Source of the DNA: a bacterium
GTDB taxonomy: Bacteria > Hinthialibacterota > Hinthialibacteria > OLB16
DNA: 64,000 bases
Assembly: GCA_022072055.1 (NCBI GenBank)
Contig: JAJVIK010000007.1
Location: 513,442 to 577,441, forward strand
Direction of reading: 5' to 3'
Numbering within the stretch: the stretch's first letter is position 1; every line of letters starts with the position of its first letter. Of the stretch, positions 1 to 58,033 are shown piece after piece. The notes beneath the pieces were generated by a model. That model made no database searches. It saw only the letters and a program-made list of their open reading frames with translations, and was not told the origin of the DNA. A program made the translations under genes and the position numbers.

Positions 1-1
1 G

Positions 2-679
2 GCGGCCTTTCAGAATGCGCATTACACCTTTGGGCCTTACCTCTCCCCCTTTTATTCCCCCGAAATCTTCGGGGATTCGCACCACGCCCTGTTTGGACCC
101 AAGCCGGGGTGGTGGCCGGGGTGGCTGCCGTTTTCGCCGGCCTTTCTGATCCTGTGGGCCCCAGCGGGTTTCCGCTTCACCTGCTATTACTATCGCGGGG
201 CCTATTACAAGGCCTTTTGGGCCGATCCGCCCAACTGCGCGGTGGGCGAACCGCGCAAATCCTATTGGGGCGAGAACTCCTTCCCGCTCATCATGCAGAA
301 CATTCACCGATACTTCTTCTATCTCGCCTTCGCGTTCATCGTGATTCTGGCTTATGACGCTTGGAAGGGGATGTGGTTCGAGGATCCCGCCACCGGGGCC
401 ACTTCCTTTGGGATCGGGATCGGCACTCTGGTCTTGATCGTGAATGTCCTGCTCCTGGGGAGCTACACACTGGGGTGCCACTCGCTGCGGCATTTGGTTG
501 GCGGTCGGTTTGATCATCTTTCGGCGCGGCCCGGGCGCATGAAGGCTTACCACTGTGTGAGCTGCCTTAACCGCAAGCACATGCTGTGGGCTTGGTTGAG
601 CCTTTTCTGGGTCGGGTTCACCGATGTCTATGTCCGGCTCTGTTCGATGGGGATCTGGACCGATTGGAGGATTCTCTGA
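2..679 (+). CDS. sdhC: Succinate dehydrogenase/fumarate reductase cytochrome b membrane subunit, 5'-partial (continues upstream of window)
   Basis: Frame open from window start to TGA at 677-679; hydrophobic helices with conserved His (HSLRHL); stop overlaps sdhA ATG (TGATG); ORF-track 242..679 is the same frame. Confidence 0.6.
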   Translation, partial: AAFQNAHYTFGPYLSPFYSPEIFGDSHHALFGPKPGWWPGWLPFSPAFLILWAPAGFRFTCYYYRGAYYKAFWADPPNCAVGEPRKSYWGENSFPLIMQNIHRYFFYLAFAFIVILAYDAWKGMWFEDPATGATSFGIGIGTLVLIVNVLLLGSYTLGCHSLRHLVGGRFDHLSARPGRMKAYHCVSCLNRKHMLWAWLSLFWVGFTDVYVRLCSMGIWTDWRIL

Positions 680-2502
680 TGGCCATCGACTATCAGACTC
701 ACGAATATGATGTGCTGGTGGTGGGCGCGGGCGGAGCGGGGTTGCGCGCGGCGATTGAAGCGGCGAACGCCGGGGTTCGGGTGGGTGTGATCTGCAAGTC
801 GCTGCTCGGCAAAGCGCACACGGTGATGGCGGAGGGGGGAGTCGCGGCGGCCATGGCCAATGTGGACGAACGCGACAACTGGCGGGTGCACTTCTCCGAC
901 ACCATGCGCGGCGGTCAATATTTGAACAATCCGCGCATGGCGGAGCTTCACGCCAAGGAGGCTCCGGATCGAGTCCGGGAGTTGGAGGCCTGGGGCGCGG
1001 TGTTCGACCGGACCGAGGATGGACGCATCCTCCAAAGGAATTTCGGGGGTCACCGCTATCCGCGCCTGGCGCATGTGGGCGACCGCACCGGCCTGGAGAT
1101 GATCCGCGTGCTTCAGGATCACGCCGTGCACCTTGGGATGACTTTTCACATGGAGTGCACGGTGGTGGATCTCCTCAAGGATGGGGACCGGGTCGCCGGG
1201 GCATTCGCCTATGACCGCGAGCGCGGGCGATTCATGGTGCTCAAGGCCAAGGCGGTGGTGCTCGCCACCGGCGGCATCGGGCGCGGGTTCAAGATCACCA
1301 GTAACAGTTGGGAATACACCGCCGACGGGCAGGCGTTGGCTTACCGCGCCGGGGCGGAGCTGATGGACATGGAGTTTGTCCAGTTTCACCCGACCGGGAT
1401 GGTCTGGCCCCCCAGCGTGCGCGGAATTCTGGTGACCGAAGGGGTGCGCGGGGAGGGCGGAGTCCTCAAGAACAGCAAGGGGGAGCGTTTCATGTTCAAC
1501 GACATCCCCGACCTGTACAAGAACCAGACCGCCGACAACGAGGAAGAGGGTTGGCGGTATGTGCTCGGCGACCGCAACGCGCGCCGTCCGCCCGAGCTCC
1601 TGACCCGCGACCATGTGGCGCGCTGCATCATGCGCGAAATCAAGGAAGGCCGCGGCAGCCCGCATGGCGGGGTGTTTTTGGACATCGCCTGGATCAAGAG
1701 TCGGGTCTCGGGAGGCGCGGAGCACATCAAAAGGAAGCTCCCGAGCATGTATCACCAGTTCAAGGAGCTTGCCGGCATCGACATCACCGAGGAGCCGATG
1801 GAAATCGGTCCAACCACCCACTATATGATGGGCGGCATTCGGGTGGACGCGGACACCCAGATGGCCCGGGTTCCGGGCTTGTTCGCCGCCGGGGAGTGCG
1901 CCGCCGGGTTGCATGGGGCGAACCGATTGGGTGGAAACTCCCTTTCCGATTTGCTCGTGTTTGGGAAGCGCGCCGGCGAATTCGCCGCAATTTTCGCCAG
2001 GGAGCGCGGCGACGCCAAGGTTCATGAATCCCAGGTCGAGGAGGCGGCCCGGCGCGCCTTGGCCCCCTTGGAGCGTCAAGCCGCCACGGGCTCGGAGGGA
2101 CCTTTCCAGGTTCAGCAATCGCTCCAAGACACCATGCAGAGCCTGGTCGGGATTGTCCGCACCGAGGCCGAGATGGCCCATGCGGTCGAGGAGATCGGAA
2201 AGTTGCGCGAACGGGCCGCGAAAGTTGCCGCCTATGGAAACCGGGAGTACAACGCGGGCTGGCACACCGCGCTGGACCTGGAGAACCTGCTCACCATATC
2301 GGAGGCCATCGCCCGCTCCGCGCTGGACCGCAAAGAGAGCCGTGGAGCGCATTTTCGCGAGGACTATCCCAACAAGGACCCGGAATTCGGTAAACTGAAC
2401 ACAATCCTCGAACGGGGCGCGGATGGGTCCATGAAGCTCCGTCGGGAACAGCTCCCCCCAATGGCCGAGGAGCTGGCGAAGGTGATTGAGGAGATGAAGT
2501 AG
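679..2502 (+). CDS. sdhA: Succinate dehydrogenase/fumarate reductase flavoprotein subunit
   Basis: N-terminal FAD fold VLVVGAGGAGLRAA, covalent-FAD His region, HPTG and RLGGNSL motifs, length about 607 aa; start MAIDYQ at 679. Confidence 0.9.
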   Translation: MAIDYQTHEYDVLVVGAGGAGLRAAIEAANAGVRVGVICKSLLGKAHTVMAEGGVAAAMANVDERDNWRVHFSDTMRGGQYLNNPRMAELHAKEAPDRVRELEAWGAVFDRTEDGRILQRNFGGHRYPRLAHVGDRTGLEMIRVLQDHAVHLGMTFHMECTVVDLLKDGDRVAGAFAYDRERGRFMVLKAKAVVLATGGIGRGFKITSNSWEYTADGQALAYRAGAELMDMEFVQFHPTGMVWPPSVRGILVTEGVRGEGGVLKNSKGERFMFNDIPDLYKNQTADNEEEGWRYVLGDRNARRPPELLTRDHVARCIMREIKEGRGSPHGGVFLDIAWIKSRVSGGAEHIKRKLPSMYHQFKELAGIDITEEPMEIGPTTHYMMGGIRVDADTQMARVPGLFAAGECAAGLHGANRLGGNSLSDLLVFGKRAGEFAAIFARERGDAKVHESQVEEAARRALAPLERQAATGSEGPFQVQQSLQDTMQSLVGIVRTEAEMAHAVEEIGKLRERAAKVAAYGNREYNAGWHTALDLENLLTISEAIARSALDRKESRGAHFREDYPNKDPEFGKLNTILERGADGSMKLRREQLPPMAEELAKVIEEMK

Positions 2503-2504
2503 CT

Positions 2505-2717
2505 ATGGCCAGCATACTTGTTAGGACTCGCGTGGAATCGGACACGCTCAGAATCCCCGAGCTATCGTCATTCATCGGCAAGAATGTCGATGTTTATGTG
2601 ACCGAAGCTCGGGCTGAGGAAATCGATCCCGCATGGAGGAATTTTTTCGACAACGCGGCTGAGGATACGATCGACCTCAACGCCGTGATCGAACTTCGCC
2701 AGGCCAGCATGACATGA
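2505..2717 (+). CDS. Putative antitoxin (AbrB/SpoVT-like VapB candidate)
   Basis: 70-aa ORF starting 2 nt after sdhA stop, stop overlaps the downstream PIN gene start (ATGA); lower GC than flanks. Confidence 0.45.
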   Translation: MASILVRTRVESDTLRIPELSSFIGKNVDVYVTEARAEEIDPAWRNFFDNAAEDTIDLNAVIELRQASMT

Positions 2718-3109
2718 CCGTTCTCCTGGACACGAACGTTCTCGTGGACCTCTGGCGGCAACCGTTCGAGAGCGCGCTGGACCGCCTTCCCATGGGGAGA
2801 GCTGCAATTTGTGGCGTGACACGGGCTGAGCTCCTCCAAGGGGCTCGTTCCGCGACGGACAAGGAAACCATCAATCGACGGTTGCGAATGTTCATCCAGA
2901 TTCCGATCACGGAGGACTTGTGGGGTGAGCTCGGCGATATCTTGGCCTGTCTTCGTAGGCAAGGGATTTCCGTCCCATTTCCTGATGCCCTCATTTCCAC
3001 GGTGGCATTGCATGAAGGGATCGCGCTCTGGACCAACGATTCTCATTTCGGGTTGATTCAGCGGGCCTTTCCCAATTTGGATTTATACATCCCCACGAGG
3101 AGCGAATAG
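2714..3109 (+). CDS. vapC: PIN-domain ribonuclease toxin VapC
   Basis: MTVLLDTNVLVD N-terminus with acidic residues typical of PIN; 131 aa; translationally coupled to the upstream small ORF. Confidence 0.75.
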   Translation: MTVLLDTNVLVDLWRQPFESALDRLPMGRAAICGVTRAELLQGARSATDKETINRRLRMFIQIPITEDLWGELGDILACLRRQGISVPFPDALISTVALHEGIALWTNDSHFGLIQRAFPNLDLYIPTRSE

Positions 3110-3111
3110 CA

Positions 3112-3852
3112 ATGCCCCCTGTAACCTTCAACATCTGGCGCGGCGGCGCCGAAGGCGGAGAATTCAAGGAGTATCGGACCGAGGTCACCGAGGGCATGGT
3201 GGTCCTGGATGCCGTGCACCAGATTCAGGCCGAGTCCGCCAATGACCTCGCGGTGCGCTGGAACTGCAAGGCCGGAAAGTGCGGCTCCTGCTCCGCCGAG
3301 ATCAACGGCAAACCGCGCCTGATGTGCATGACCCGCATGAGCGACCTCCCGGTCAATCAGCCCGTGCGCATCGAACCGATGCAGGCCTTTCCCTCAATCA
3401 AGGACCTGGTCACGGATGTCTCCTGGAACTTCGAGGTCAAGAAACGCCTTAAGAGGTTCAAGCCGCGCAAGCCGGACGCGCCGGATGGGTCTTGGCGCTT
3501 CGCGCAGGCCGACACCGACCGGGTCCAGGAGTTCCGCAAGTGCATCGAGTGCTTTCTGTGCCAGGATGTCTGCCATGTGTTGCGCGACCACCACAAGCAC
3601 GAGGAGTTCATCGGGCCTCGCTTCTTCGTTTACTCCGCCGCGCTGGAGATGCACCCGCTGGATGAAGAGGATCGCCTGGAGGACCTCAAGCGCGCGAACG
3701 GCATCGGCTACTGCAACATCACCAAGTGTTGCACCAAGGTCTGCCCCGAGCACATCACCATCACCGACAACGCGATCATCCCGCTCAAGGAGCGCGTGGT
3801 GGACCGCTTCTATGATCCCGTGCGGATGCTGCTCCGGGTGATTGGGGGATAA
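3112..3852 (+). CDS. sdhB: Succinate dehydrogenase/fumarate reductase iron-sulfur subunit
   Basis: Cys clusters CKAGKCGSCS, CIECFLCQDVC, CTKVCPE for 2Fe-2S/4Fe-4S/3Fe-4S centres. Confidence 0.9.
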   Translation: MPPVTFNIWRGGAEGGEFKEYRTEVTEGMVVLDAVHQIQAESANDLAVRWNCKAGKCGSCSAEINGKPRLMCMTRMSDLPVNQPVRIEPMQAFPSIKDLVTDVSWNFEVKKRLKRFKPRKPDAPDGSWRFAQADTDRVQEFRKCIECFLCQDVCHVLRDHHKHEEFIGPRFFVYSAALEMHPLDEEDRLEDLKRANGIGYCNITKCCTKVCPEHITITDNAIIPLKERVVDRFYDPVRMLLRVIGG

Positions 3853-3866
3853 CGGGAAACCCGAGA

Positions 3867-4898
3867 CTATTGCGCCTTCTTGATCTTCGCAGTGGCGAAG
3901 ATCTTGCGGTGGAGGGTCACGAAGTTGGCGGCGTAGGATTTCGGGTTCACCACGATTCTCAGTTCCGGATCGGAGCTGAAGGTGGTTCCCTCGTCGCTGG
4001 TTCGCATCGAGCCTTCAATCAGCAGGAAGCGGTCATAGGGGTGTTGCGGAGACATCATCCGCTGGATGTAATCCCGCGCCGCGCTGCTGGACACCGGGAT
4101 GCTTTTGAACTGGGAGTCGCTCGCGGTGATGATCTTCTCCTGGAGCTTGGGCTTGCGCTCCTTGTATTCCTTGGAGGTGGGAAGCAGGGACTCAAAAATG
4201 CCCCCGCCCGGAAGCCCCAGGATGGCGTCCAACCCCACCTTGTCCTCTTCCCCCTTGCGCGGAGTGGCCACCAGCTCGTTCAAGGTGACGTCGAGAATCG
4301 GAATGGCCGGTCGCTCGGCGCGATCCCTGCCGCGCCCCATGTTGGGGTAGTGGCGCTCCAGCCGCGAGACCTGATAGTTGGCGAGGAAAACCTCAACTCC
4401 CAAGAATGGGTCATAAAGGTAAGCGAGATCATCCTGGGCGGTCTCCATGTACTTCTTGAATTCCGGGGTGACAATCCAGGCGTATTCGGGAACAAGCAGC
4501 TCCGCGAAGGGGATGGTGTCGATGGCCTTGGCGGCCTCGCCCGGTTGGCGACCAAGCGCGAGGATCAGGGCCTGGCGGGCCTTCTGATGCGCCCAATACC
4601 AGTAGTCGGCGTTCTCTCCGCGGTTCTCATTCATGAATTTCTTGTCGCCCTCCGGATCACGCTGGAGGATTTCGGCCTTGTTCTTGGCGATGGTCCGGAC
4701 CGACTTACGGGTCATGAGGGTCACAAAAGCGTCGTTTTCCTCCAGGATCGCGGCTTCCTGTTCGCTAAGCTCCTTGGGAACATCGGCTTGGCGGACCTTG
4801 GAAAGGGCGGCGCCCTCTTGGGGTGTCGCCATCAGGACACAGGCGAACGCGGCAAGGATCGTGGGAAAGAAGTGGGGGAGAAGTCGGTGCGCTTCCAT
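3867..4898 (-). CDS. Hypothetical secreted protein (N-terminal signal-like hydrophobic segment)
   Basis: 343-aa ORF, non-repetitive composition, hydrophobic N-terminus; no recognisable catalytic motif. Confidence 0.5.
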   Translation of the reverse strand: MEAHRLLPHFFPTILAAFACVLMATPQEGAALSKVRQADVPKELSEQEAAILEENDAFVTLMTRKSVRTIAKNKAEILQRDPEGDKKFMNENRGENADYWYWAHQKARQALILALGRQPGEAAKAIDTIPFAELLVPEYAWIVTPEFKKYMETAQDDLAYLYDPFLGVEVFLANYQVSRLERHYPNMGRGRDRAERPAIPILDVTLNELVATPRKGEEDKVGLDAILGLPGGGIFESLLPTSKEYKERKPKLQEKIITASDSQFKSIPVSSSAARDYIQRMMSPQHPYDRFLLIEGSMRTSDEGTTFSSDPELRIVVNPKSYAANFVTLHRKIFATAKIKKAQ

Positions 4899-6166: not shown

Positions 6167-6961
6167 TTACAACTCCTCGAAGGTTTTCACGGTCACCTCG
6201 GCAATCTTCACTCGGTGAGTCCCGGCGCCAAGACCATGTGCGATGAGGATGAGTTCCAGACTGTTCATCTGCGTCCGCGTCCAAGCTCCCCCATACTCAC
6301 CGGCCCACTCGCCATACTCAAAAGTTAAAACCTGGGGACTTGTCAGTGGCGGAAAAGTCAGAGGGAGCGCAACGAAATAGGGTTCAGCGAAGGCCTGTCC
6401 CGCAATTCTCACGTTGACTTCGAGATCATCAATACTGCCATCGCGTTCAGCGACTAGTCGGACTTCGAGCTTCTTGATTCCCCAATCCTGATTTGGATTA
6501 TCGAAACCATAGATCTGAGGAACATCATTGTCCTCAGAACTCACACGCGCCTCAATATAGGTGCCAAGGCTATTGTCTCTCAGAAGGGCGTGGTCACTAA
6601 CATGCCATTCCTGTGTAACGCTGGCATTTGGACTGAGGGGATAGTTTGCGGCAGTCGTCGTAGAAATCGAATTCTGACTTTGATGGGTATTAAGATCACT
6701 CATCAGCTCCACGACTTTTATCCAATACTGGGTGTTCTCATTCAGTCCGGAAACAGTGCATGAGCCAGTCGTCTGACCTTGTACATACAGGGCATCAGCC
6801 CCTGGTTCCCATGGCCCGCTCGCGGAAGTTTGTGAGATGTAAACTGTCGCGCTTAGTGGGGAGATGCCCCCGGCTGGAGGTGTCCAATCCCACTGCACGG
6901 TCAGCGTGCCTGGCGTACGTTTCGTCACGGCCTCATTCGATAGCCATACACCCATTGTCAT
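6167..6961 (-). CDS. Hypothetical protein with fibronectin type III-like N-terminal region; lower-GC orphan gene
   Basis: 264-aa ORF; FN3-like pattern (TVQWDW...GLNENTQYWIKVV); visibly lower GC than the flanking atp genes. Confidence 0.5.
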   Translation of the reverse strand: MTMGVWLSNEAVTKRTPGTLTVQWDWTPPAGGISPLSATVYISQTSASGPWEPGADALYVQGQTTGSCTVSGLNENTQYWIKVVELMSDLNTHQSQNSISTTTAANYPLSPNASVTQEWHVSDHALLRDNSLGTYIEARVSSEDNDVPQIYGFDNPNQDWGIKKLEVRLVAERDGSIDDLEVNVRIAGQAFAEPYFVALPLTFPPLTSPQVLTFEYGEWAGEYGGAWTRTQMNSLELILIAHGLGAGTHRVKIAEVTVKTFEEL

Positions 6962-13324: not shown

Positions 13325-13723
13325 TCAGCGCCTTGCCCAGTTCTCCAGTCGCAGATCCGGGATCCTTCCGAAGCGCTTCACATTGTTTGTGACCAAGCAG
13401 TAATCGAGCATGAGGGCGCTTGCGGCGATGATCAAGTCAAAGTCGTCGAGAACCTGGCCCTTCCGCGAAAGGTCTGCTTTCAGTGACGCGTAGGTTTCCA
13501 TCACGCCTCGAGTTATCCCGATCACCGGGAAAACTTCGATGAGTTGGCGAACATTTGCCGTGTTTTGGCGAGGGTTTTCCGATTTCTCCGCCCCATGCAG
13601 GAGCTCTCCGTAGCTGATCATCGAGATCGCTTTCGGGAAAGGTTCTTTCTCTTTGAGGGTCGCGAGAACAGACCTATTCCCTCGCAGGATGAAGACGAGG
13701 ATGTCGGTATCAATCAAAAACAC
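13325..13723 (-). CDS. vapC: PIN-domain toxin VapC (probable GTG start)
   Basis: VFLIDTDILV PIN N-terminus; no in-frame ATG, GTG at 13723 overlaps the antitoxin stop. Confidence 0.7.
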   Translation of the reverse strand: MFLIDTDILVFILRGNRSVLATLKEKEPFPKAISMISYGELLHGAEKSENPRQNTANVRQLIEVFPVIGITRGVMETYASLKADLSRKGQVLDDFDLIIAASALMLDYCLVTNNVKRFGRIPDLRLENWARR

Positions 13724-14024
13724 GAAGCATTTTCTCCCGCCGGGATGAAAACCGCCGGGCTTTCCGGATCGAATCCGCAATCTCCTCGGCCGACCTTGAA
13801 TCCTTCCAGGTCCCGGCCAGCTTCAAGAGCTCTCGCGTGGCCTTCGCTGGGTCCTCCTCCGGTCGCGAGAGGCCCTCCTGGATGAGTGTGACCACCTCCT
13901 GGCTGATGGACCGGTTGTTCCTTTTCGCCCTTGCCCCCAGGGCGCGATACAAGTTGTCGTCCATTCCCTTGACTTGCAGATTCGCCACGATGGTCTCCCA
14001 TTCCAATCCTGACCCCTCAATCAT
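13710..14024 (-). CDS. vapB: Ribbon-helix-helix antitoxin (VapB/FitA-like)
   Basis: N-terminal beta-strand then helices (ANLQVKGMDDNLYRALGARAKRNNRSISQEV), RHH-like; overlaps the PIN gene. Confidence 0.6.
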   Translation of the reverse strand: MIEGSGLEWETIVANLQVKGMDDNLYRALGARAKRNNRSISQEVVTLIQEGLSRPEEDPAKATRELLKLAGTWKDSRSAEEIADSIRKARRFSSRREKMLRVFD

Positions 14025-14210
14025 CCTATCGGGTCTTTCATGAGAAGGCAACCGAATTTCATGAAAGGGCATCCGAACCGCTCTGGAATCCTTCGTGGTT
14101 AAGGTTCACCAGGGTTCTTCGACACCGGCAAACTCGATATACTCTACCCTCACTTCCGCCGACCTCTCCAAGCCGCGAGGGACGCGGTGGTGGTGGCGGG
14201 CTAACCGAGG

Positions 14211-47373: not shown

Positions 47374-47628
47374 TCAATAGTGGTACCTGCAGGCAATAAT
47401 GGTCAGTGTTTCACCCTCCACTTCATAAACGAGGCGGTGTTCACGGTCGATTCGCCTTGACCAACAATTCCTCAGCTGCCAACGAAGAGGCTCAGGTTTT
47501 CCGATTCCCTGGAATGGGTTTCGCTGGGTGTCTTTGATGAGCTCATTGACTCGCTTGAGCATCGCTTTGTCGGTCCGTTGCCAGTGGAGATAATCCTCCC
47601 AAGCCGCCTCCGTGAAGAGGATTCTCAA
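47374..47628 (-). CDS. yoeB: YoeB toxin (Txe/YoeB family mRNA interferase)
   Basis: Near-consensus YoeB sequence (WEDYLHWQRTDK...WSRRIDREHRLVYEVEGETLTIIACRYHY). Confidence 0.9.
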   Translation of the reverse strand: MRILFTEAAWEDYLHWQRTDKAMLKRVNELIKDTQRNPFQGIGKPEPLRWQLRNCWSRRIDREHRLVYEVEGETLTIIACRYHY

Positions 47629-47631
47629 ACT

Positions 47632-47889
47632 CTACTCCTCCTCCGCAAGTTGCCGCTCCTCAGCCTTTCCCGAGCGAGCATCGGCCAACGACTTCATCAA
47701 CCTCTCCTCATTCCTTGGACACCGCAACAGGTACGCCGTCTCCTCCATTGACTCGTAATCCGAAAGAGAAAGGAGTACGGCTGGCGGATGGCCTGAACGC
47801 GAAATGATCACCGGCTCGCAGTCCGCCTCGATACGATCCAGGACGGTCGTGAGGTTCTTCTCGAACTCCGCAAGAGATACAGTTTCCAT
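47632..47889 (-). CDS. yefM: YefM antitoxin (Phd/YefM family)
   Basis: 85-aa ORF 3 nt upstream of yoeB with Phd/YefM-like N-terminus (PVIISRSGHPPAVLLSLSDYESMEET). Confidence 0.85.
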   Translation of the reverse strand: METVSLAEFEKNLTTVLDRIEADCEPVIISRSGHPPAVLLSLSDYESMEETAYLLRCPRNEERLMKSLADARSGKAEERQLAEEE

Positions 47890-57545: not shown

Positions 57546-58033
57546 CAAGCAGTTCCTCCGGTGTACAGATCGTCGGTGTTGAGAATCCTTCTCTTTGGTT
57601 AATTTGCCGCACTCGACGGCGAATATGACCGTTGGCGATATGCCTGCAGTTCCATGTTGCCAGAAACATCGTGCCCCAAACAGAGGCAGGGGCAATGTGA
57701 AGGGCATCACGCGCGGCATCCGTGGGCAGGTCAGATTTCCTCGAGATAGACACTGGCCAGCCGCTCCACTTCGGCGGACACATGGAGTTCTGAAAACCCG
57801 CGCAGCGAGGCCAGTCGCTTTCTCGCCGCATCCTGGTCACCGCGTGACGCCTCGGCCAGGACTACCTCGGATATGAAGACCTCGTACCCCGGAAGCGCCT
57901 CCTTCCACCACCGACGAGTGATCTCTTGGTGGGCCAGAACAAGGATGTCCCTCGACGAGCGGGCTTCGAGATAGCCGACAACTGAAGTTTCGAGGTACAG
58001 GCGTGGCTTATCAGCCATTATCGATGGTTCCAC
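57529..58033 (-). pseudogene. PIN-like nuclease gene split by an apparent frameshift near 57731-57745
   Basis: N-terminal part (RLYLETSVV...YEVFISEVV) ends at stop 57731; C-terminal part (DALHIAPA...FLATWNCRHIANG) continues in another frame. Confidence 0.5.

Follow-up and report, generated by a model that had tools for sequence, protein, structure and literature searches.

A VapBC-like gene pair between sdhA and sdhB of a Hinthialibacterota genome, and other inserts at the same operon junction

Classical type II toxin-antitoxin (TA) modules carry a promoter/operator, and in Escherichia coli the relBEF and mazEFG modules lie between core genes, lack a terminator and are co-transcribed with the downstream gene (PMC5120126). 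In Listeria, mazEF is reported to be adjacent to the sigB operon (PMC5308263), and SdhE/CptB (YgfY) is labelled both as an antitoxin and as a flavinylation factor of succinate dehydrogenase (Sdh; PMC8621075). No paper describing a TA pair inside an sdh operon was found in the literature searched. Here, a pair of small genes lodged between sdhA and sdhB was examined in a stretch of 64,000 nucleotides (nt; i.e. the window) of contig JAJVIK010000007.1 (positions 513,442 to 577,441 of the forward strand), which belongs to a metagenome-assembled genome (MAG) of the Hinthialibacterota (GCA_022072055.1). This pair is probably a horizontally acquired, promoterless type II cassette of the VapBC kind, placed precisely in the sdhA-sdhB junction and co-transcribed with sdh.

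Composition of the locus and identity of the gene pair

All genes of the sdh locus are on the + strand. The first frame, open from base 2 (2-679) and with its 5' end cut by the window start, aligned with the 290-amino-acid (aa) SdhC of a Hydrogenedentota MAG (i.e. L005) and with SdhC in 80 related loci, and was assigned to the sdhC-type membrane subunit. The sdhC stop overlaps the ATG of sdhA as ATGA; sdhA (676-2502) encodes the flavoprotein subunit (NCBIfam PRK07803, 993 bits with a cut-off of 819; Pfam FAD_binding_2 and Succ_DH_flav_C) and ends in a TAG at 2500-2502. The ATG of a 70-aa open reading frame (ORF), the putative VapB-like antitoxin gene (2505-2717), lies 2 nt past this stop. This ORF overlaps by ATGA a 131-aa PIN-domain ORF, the putative VapC-type toxin gene (2714-3109), whose TAG stop (3107-3109) is separated by a further 2 nt from the ATG of sdhB. 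The latter gene encodes the iron-sulphur subunit (3112-3852; NCBIfam PRK12386, 402 bits with a cut-off of 256) and is the final gene of the operon, the next gene downstream being convergent. A sequence-only reading of this DNA had described a gene pair between sdhA and sdhB with spacings of 2 nt, ATGA and 2 nt, and the ORF coordinates were exact to the base. The lower GC content noted in the same reading was borne out both overall (0.53 and 0.56 for the 70-aa and PIN ORFs versus 0.64 and 0.62 for sdhA and sdhB) and at third codon positions (GC3; 0.63 and 0.67 versus 0.81 and 0.86, respectively). Shine-Dalgarno-like GAGGAG motifs could be read at 2488-2493, in the final codons of sdhA upstream of the antitoxin ATG, and at 3097-3102, within the end of the PIN ORF and 9 nt upstream of the sdhB ATG. 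An 18-nt tandem direct repeat at 2711-2746 (GACATGACCGTTCTCCTG / GACACGAACGTTCTCGTG; identity 83%) covers the stop of the antitoxin gene together with the initial toxin codons, and may be a mere reflection of a TVLLD/TNVLVD peptide repeat.

The 131-aa protein matched Pfam PIN (PF01850) at 43.1 bits (cut-off 23.6) and, among PDB sequences, VapC21 of Mycobacterium tuberculosis (1e-5) and a Klebsiella VapC (7by2, 1e-4). An AlphaFold (AF2) model was obtained with a predicted local distance difference test score (pLDDT) of 88 and a predicted template-modelling score (pTM) of 0.83, and the predicted PIN fold matched FitB, VapC2, VapC15 and other toxins of TA complexes at template-modelling (TM) scores of 0.72-0.79. 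A lack of the conserved acidic catalytic residues would have refuted the earlier assignment, but all four (i.e. D6, E39, D91 and D109) were present and invariant in an alignment with the two nearest homologues and the distant PIN protein of L005. Sequence, predicted fold and these four residues together indicate a VapC-type toxin. Scores fell under the cut-offs of the NCBIfam VapC equivalogs (NF047959, 50.6 bits with a cut-off of 80; NF047863, 37.2 bits with a cut-off of 140), and the name given in the source record, 'tRNA(fMet)-specific endonuclease', is a label that is unsupported at the equivalog level.

A HMMER search over 1.84 billion cluster-representative proteins retrieved 26 relatives of the 70-aa ORF at E<=1e-3, most of them of ~70 aa, and the family exhibited an N-terminal motif (ESDTLxIPELxxxIGKxVEIIVxE) and a C-terminal motif (AGxxxIDxDAxxxLRxAS). 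A word-indexed sequence search with the same ORF returned only itself. No match was observed in Pfam, NCBIfam or the PDB, and a scan of 28 family members against these three libraries was likewise empty; this antitoxin family is undescribed, being absent from Pfam and NCBIfam. An hhalign comparison with the AF2212-like antitoxin of L005 gave nothing usable. In all six contexts examined, the 70-aa homologue immediately precedes, and overlaps by 4 nt, a homologous PIN gene. The homologous pairs, with antitoxin ORFs of 70-79 aa, occur between a ferredoxin gene and a membrane-protein gene (L001), downstream of panC (L002/L003 and L168), upstream of DUF58/BatA genes (L165, where the PIN ORF is uncalled but passes Pfam) and beside another VapB/PIN pair (L169), and none of these relatives adjoins sdh. 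As the partnership with PIN is conserved while the surroundings change, the 70-aa ORF can be regarded as the putative cognate antitoxin of the PIN toxin. The TA identity proposed in the sequence-only reading was therefore upheld by the Pfam PIN match, the acidic tetrad, the VapC/FitB-like predicted fold and the conservation of the 70-aa ORF beside homologous PIN genes. Neither cassette protein matched the PADLOC models of defence systems, and no plasmid relatives of the pair were found.

Cassette boundaries and related sdh junctions

The nearest relative of the locus (L170; GCA_964543835.1, CAZJCE010000150.1), with a SdhB of 94% aa identity to that of the window, also contains an insert between sdhA and sdhB (L170:1829-2531). 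This insert consists of a 74-aa ORF and a 153-aa PIN ORF with spacers of 9, 4 and 15 nt; the 153-aa protein matched Pfam PIN at 35 bits and the 74-aa protein had no Pfam match. Using blastn, positions 1-1828 and 2532-3742 of L170 aligned with 674-2501 and 3099-4288 of the window at 86.1% and 86.4% nt identity, respectively, and nothing aligned between. In BLASTP, no alignment was obtained between the two antitoxins or between the two PIN proteins; the PIN cassettes of the window, L170 and L005 are mutually unrelated. The window cassette was bounded at ~2503 and ~3098 (i.e. 2503-3098 on the + strand), because the similarity between the window and L170 breaks at these positions. The flanks beside the break are 92-93% identical, which is above the gene averages. 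Import of the flanks along with the cassette was considered and found to be unsupported, these being the best-conserved parts of the window/L170 comparison. The window and L170 cassettes could be independent gains or the product of a replacement at a site opened in the common ancestor.

The 3' boundary falls inside the toxin gene. The VapC frame ends, with its final three codons and stop (AGG AGC GAA TAG), within a ~14-nt sdhB leader common to L170 (GGAG[C/A]G[-/G]AA[T/A]AGCA-ATG), and the GAGGAG at 3097-3102 is shared with L170 in degenerate form. The C-terminus of the window VapC is two residues longer than in its homologues because the end of the gene reads into this shared leader.

Distribution among relatives was assessed for 142 sdhA-sdhB junctions, comprising 77 GTDB species representatives and 65 metagenome contigs with SdhA or SdhB identities to the window of 68-80%; the survey of related loci covered the best 80 of at least 600 matches. 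A homologue of either cassette protein was present in none of the 142 junctions. The spacer was <=5 nt in 77 of these junctions, and the commonest arrangement was a sdhA stop overlapping the sdhB ATG (TAATG or TGATG). The best SdhA match among the GTDB species representatives, at 79%, was that of L005. For the six closest SdhB relatives in the protein database, sdhA and sdhB were abutting or overlapping and no insert was present in five. One of these (L171, SdhB 88%) has a TAATG overlap and the same downstream convergent 343-aa gene, and represents a syntenic site without an insert; no insert was observed in L172, P0036, L173/L174 or L175 (82-84%). The suggestion that the pair might be a conserved accessory subunit or assembly factor of Sdh was rejected on this distribution, with a homologue in none of the 142 related junctions, five of the six closest relatives empty and the sixth holding an unrelated pair. 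The sequence-only reading had also called the position unusual, a view that held in part. Among the >140 related operons, the pair occurs in this genome only, but a few percent of relatives hold other TA or selfish genes at this site, the nearest relative has a different PIN pair, and co-transcribed TA modules wedged among core genes are known in E. coli (PMC5120126).

The junction sequences contain some indications of how the cassette arrived. The 18 nt upstream of the sdhB ATG resemble the final 18 nt of sdhA (GAGGAG...TAG), a similarity equalled by 10 of 573 internal 18-mers and by 30 of 500 shuffles. This resemblance is suggestive of a target-site duplication and could equally represent a selected ribosome-binding site. 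A clear signal was observed in L088, whose insert (a 93-aa ORF, a PIN_3 toxin and a 251-aa ORF) is bordered by exact direct repeats of 11 nt from the 3' end of sdhA (GAGATGAAGTA; ~1449-1459 and ~3343-3353). This repeat was matched by none of 1860 background 18-mers and looks like a duplication of the ancestral overlapping junction upon insertion. The signal was suggestive only in the window and L170, and six other loci with inserts showed none. Only weak, chance-level pairs of terminal inverted repeats were detected around the window cassette, and no transposase or recombinase gene was found near it.

Inserts of >300 nt were observed in nine of the 142 sdhA-sdhB junctions (~6%), to which L094 and L123, missed by the automatic count, add two. 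Several of the inserts resemble TA pairs, namely an AF2212-like antitoxin with a PIN protein in L005, a PIN_3/TIGR00305 toxin with the upstream 93-aa ORF in L088, and a weakly HEPN-like 165-aa ORF, below the Pfam threshold, with an 82-94-aa ORF in L022 and L118. Other junctions contain an IS110 transposase (L066), a cupin protein (L125), a 174-aa ORF of no known kind (L116) or a GxxExxY/PD-(D/E)XK_3 gene just upstream of sdhB (TIGR04256, 137 bits; L094:1-508). The L094 gene is flanked by direct repeats (GAACTGAAACCACTAA...CACACGAA). Four-helix-bundle proteins of the 23S-rRNA intervening-sequence (IVS) type (TIGR02436) fill the interval exactly from the sdhA stop to the sdhB ATG in three loci (L092:913-1318, L123:1874-2466 and L164:262-789). 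These genes are flanked by ~43-nt terminal inverted repeats of tandem octamers, (CGTTGAAG)n ... (CTTCAACG)n, and the insert ends pair as RNA into a single long stem around the ORF (z = -5.2), which is the architecture of an rRNA intervening sequence but within an mRNA operon. In L045, the 39 nt between sdhA and sdhB have the appearance of a remnant of this octamer repeat. In all cassettes checked, GC3 was 0.15-0.2 under that of the sdh neighbours.

Such inserts were also present at the sdhC-sdhA junction in three of 115 loci. One of these, in a Fimbriimonadaceae MAG (L023:3761-4812), comprises a DUF433 protein and, on the opposite strand, a weakly RelE-like and HTH_3 pair; sdhB was not detected in the 5 kb that follow sdhA in L023. 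No claim is made that the sdhA-sdhB junction is more insert-prone than sdhC-sdhA (9/142 versus 3/115, Fisher p=0.24). A Phd/YefM-type antitoxin gene is located just upstream of sdhC in L171 (914-1198), indicating that selfish small genes gather at the edge of the sdh operon too. TA pairs inside this type of sdh operon are rare but recurrent, and the best reading of these inserts is that the sdhA-sdhB junction tolerates cassettes and turns them over.

Expression of the pair and alternative explanations

Insert-free relatives have the same ...GAGGAGATGAAGTAATG junction, in which sdhB uses the GAGGAG of the final sdhA codons as a ribosome-binding site. A consensus scan for sigma-70-type promoters detected none in 1-4300, and terminator-like sites in this region were no commoner than the shuffled expectation; a terminator-like hairpin at 2573-2592 was dismissed on this count. 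The cassette would be transcribed from the sdh promoter, as part of a single sdhC-sdhA-vapB-vapC-sdhB transcript, because there is no room for a promoter of its own. Ribosomes would cross all four junctions by termination-reinitiation, aided by the GAGGAG motifs before vapB and before sdhB. With 2-nt spacers and no space for a promoter, the earlier proposal of toxin expression linked to transcription of sdh can reasonably be inferred from the gene layout, whilst release of the toxin upon sdh repression is speculation. By analogy with solved VapBC complexes, the conserved C-terminal segment of the antitoxin may occlude the VapC active site, and antitoxin depletion would then allow VapC to cleave a tRNA or rRNA target and stop translation. 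The cassette would most likely persist as a selfish addiction element, for which a respiratory benefit is unnecessary, and its loss would be doubly penalised by release of the toxin and, if imprecise, by damage to sdhB expression.

Several observations weigh against this account. No DNA-binding fold was recognised in the 70-aa protein, and its AF2 monomer (pLDDT 78) had no fold match in Foldseek. An hhalign comparison of the family with the N-termini of AbrB, SpoVT and MazE was not significant (E=0.13), although it set the IP...V.I.V motifs of the family in register. The RNA target of VapC cannot be named because the score of 50.6 is below the equivalog cut-off of 80. Co-transcription and coupling are deduced from spacing, and the lower GC3 could in part reflect a weaker codon bias than that of the highly expressed sdh genes, not a foreign origin. 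A promoter could also be situated inside the sdhA 3' end or be of another type, as the scan was limited to the sigma-70 consensus. The latter point leads to a variant in which the same VapBC cassette has its own autoregulated promoter in the last codons of sdhA, with levels set mainly by the antitoxin and partly by sdh. A promoter/operator is the rule in classical type II modules (PMC5120126) and, in other contexts, homologous cassettes are preceded by 124-162 nt of spacer, but in the window the antitoxin ATG follows the sdhA stop after only 2 nt and no sigma-70-like site was detected. Furthermore, the sdhA 3' end appears to be ordinary sdhA sequence rather than an imported promoter, because it shares 92% identity with the corresponding end in L170, where a different cassette is present. 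An autoregulated promoter in this position is therefore considered doubtful.

A more ambitious explanation is that the coupled sdhA-sdhB junction is a true integration hot spot, in which promoterless cassettes are swapped by a mechanism that recognises or duplicates the stop/start, and the toxin is slaved to sdh transcription as a growth brake when sdh expression falls. The cassettes so exchanged would include several unrelated VapBC pairs, HEPN-like pairs, four-helix-bundle genes and GxxExxY genes; taken as a whole, this scheme seems unlikely. Somewhat less plausible is that the pair is a neutral or decaying passenger, a former TA module whose toxin is inactive or barely made and without effect on the cell. 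Decay is frequent among chromosomal TA copies, the toxin frame continues for three extra codons into the sdhB leader, and the exact pair is a single sequence, such that purifying selection on this copy is not measurable. Both ORFs are, however, intact and of a length typical of the family, with the catalytic tetrad, the motifs of the antitoxin family and the ATGA overlap all preserved. Domestication as a part of sdh, with the PIN RNase or the small protein tuning sdh mRNA processing, subunit stoichiometry or assembly, would fit the position within the operon and the ribosome-binding signals preserved on both sides. This idea is largely refuted by the distribution and is very improbable, given that the pair is absent from the 142 related operons and five of the six closest relatives, that L170 holds an unrelated pair and that homologues of the pair occur in unrelated contexts. 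The origin of the sequence in a MAG raises the question of an assembly or binning artefact joining unrelated DNA. An independently assembled Logan contig (L004, 1321 nt, run SRR10609164) exhibited zero mismatches to window positions 2366-3686, which cover both junctions, and both flanks, and with them the 343-aa gene downstream, are collinear with those of L170 and L171; such an artefact is scarcely credible. The preferred explanation remains a promoterless VapBC cassette that was acquired horizontally and is transcribed with sdh.

Other features of the window, significance and comparison with known systems

Three TA pairs were identified within the 64-kb window. A second VapBC-type pair on the - strand comprises a FitA-like ribbon-helix-helix (RHH) antitoxin ORF (13710-14072) and a PIN toxin ORF (13325-13780), and the PIN start is probably further downstream as the listed ORFs overlap. 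The third is a YefM/YoeB type II pair (47374-47889, - strand; Phd_YefM at 84 bits and YoeB at 135 bits). The presence of two further type II pairs indicates that the genome is TA-rich, making an awkward insertion less surprising. A 264-aa ORF at 6167-6961 (- strand), with a weak fibronectin-III match, is located in a low-GC patch (GC 0.47-0.51, GC3 0.53 versus ~0.8 for its neighbours) and is probably another foreign gene. A 100-aa ORF at 57731-58033 (- strand) starts with MADKPRLYLETSVVGYLEARSS, which resembles a PIN N-terminus, and has no Pfam match; together with an adjoining 120-aa ORF, also without a match, it may be a further degenerate TA pair.

Taken alone, the pair is one more VapBC module, plus an antitoxin family that is lacking from curated libraries. 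With its 2-nt spacers and no promoter space, it offers a convenient natural case of a TA module whose transcription would be dictated by a host operon instead of its own antitoxin. Interest lies in unrelated cassettes being turned over at a single operon junction, rather than in the toxin, as two genomes with 86% identical flanks hold unrelated PIN cassettes at the same few bases and the next relatives are without an insert. These unrelated cassettes at the same window/L170 site, and the recurrence of selfish genes at this junction in different phyla, suggest that small selfish genes may be exchanged at operon junctions with highly conserved genes on either side.

By sequence and structural model, the module combines the predicted PIN fold, the acidic tetrad and the overlapping, conserved upstream partner by which VapBC modules are recognised. 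As in FitAB of Neisseria gonorrhoeae, VapBC2 of Rickettsia felis and VapBC15 of M. tuberculosis, a small antitoxin gene is located upstream of, and overlaps, a gene for a ~130-aa PIN toxin with four acidic residues, and the predicted toxin fold resembles theirs at the TM scores given above. The window pair differs from these modules in that its antitoxin is in no described family and has no recognisable AbrB, RHH, helix-turn-helix (HTH) or Phd fold, its toxin is below the NCBIfam VapC equivalog cut-offs, and the 2 nt upstream provide no intergenic region for a promoter/operator. Four-helix-bundle (TIGR02436) and GxxExxY (TIGR04256) genes occupy the same sdhA-sdhB junction in other organisms but encode unrelated proteins, and the four-helix-bundle cassettes have inverted repeats of ~43 nt, whereas the window cassette has none.

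SdhE/CptB (PMC8621075) is the one known link of succinate dehydrogenase to a TA label; it is a conserved assembly factor with no relation in sequence or architecture to the sporadic PIN cassette of the window. Listeria mazEF (PMC5308263) is similarly a TA pair linked to a housekeeping or stress operon, but is situated upstream of that operon rather than between genes for two subunits of the same enzyme complex. A parallel in arrangement is provided by E. coli relBEF and mazEFG (PMC5120126), in which a horizontally acquired TA pair is likewise lodged between conserved genes and transcriptionally linked to its neighbours. The E. coli modules have their own promoter and stand at the head of the shared transcript, whereas the window pair is internal to a respiratory operon, with 2 nt between it and each neighbour.

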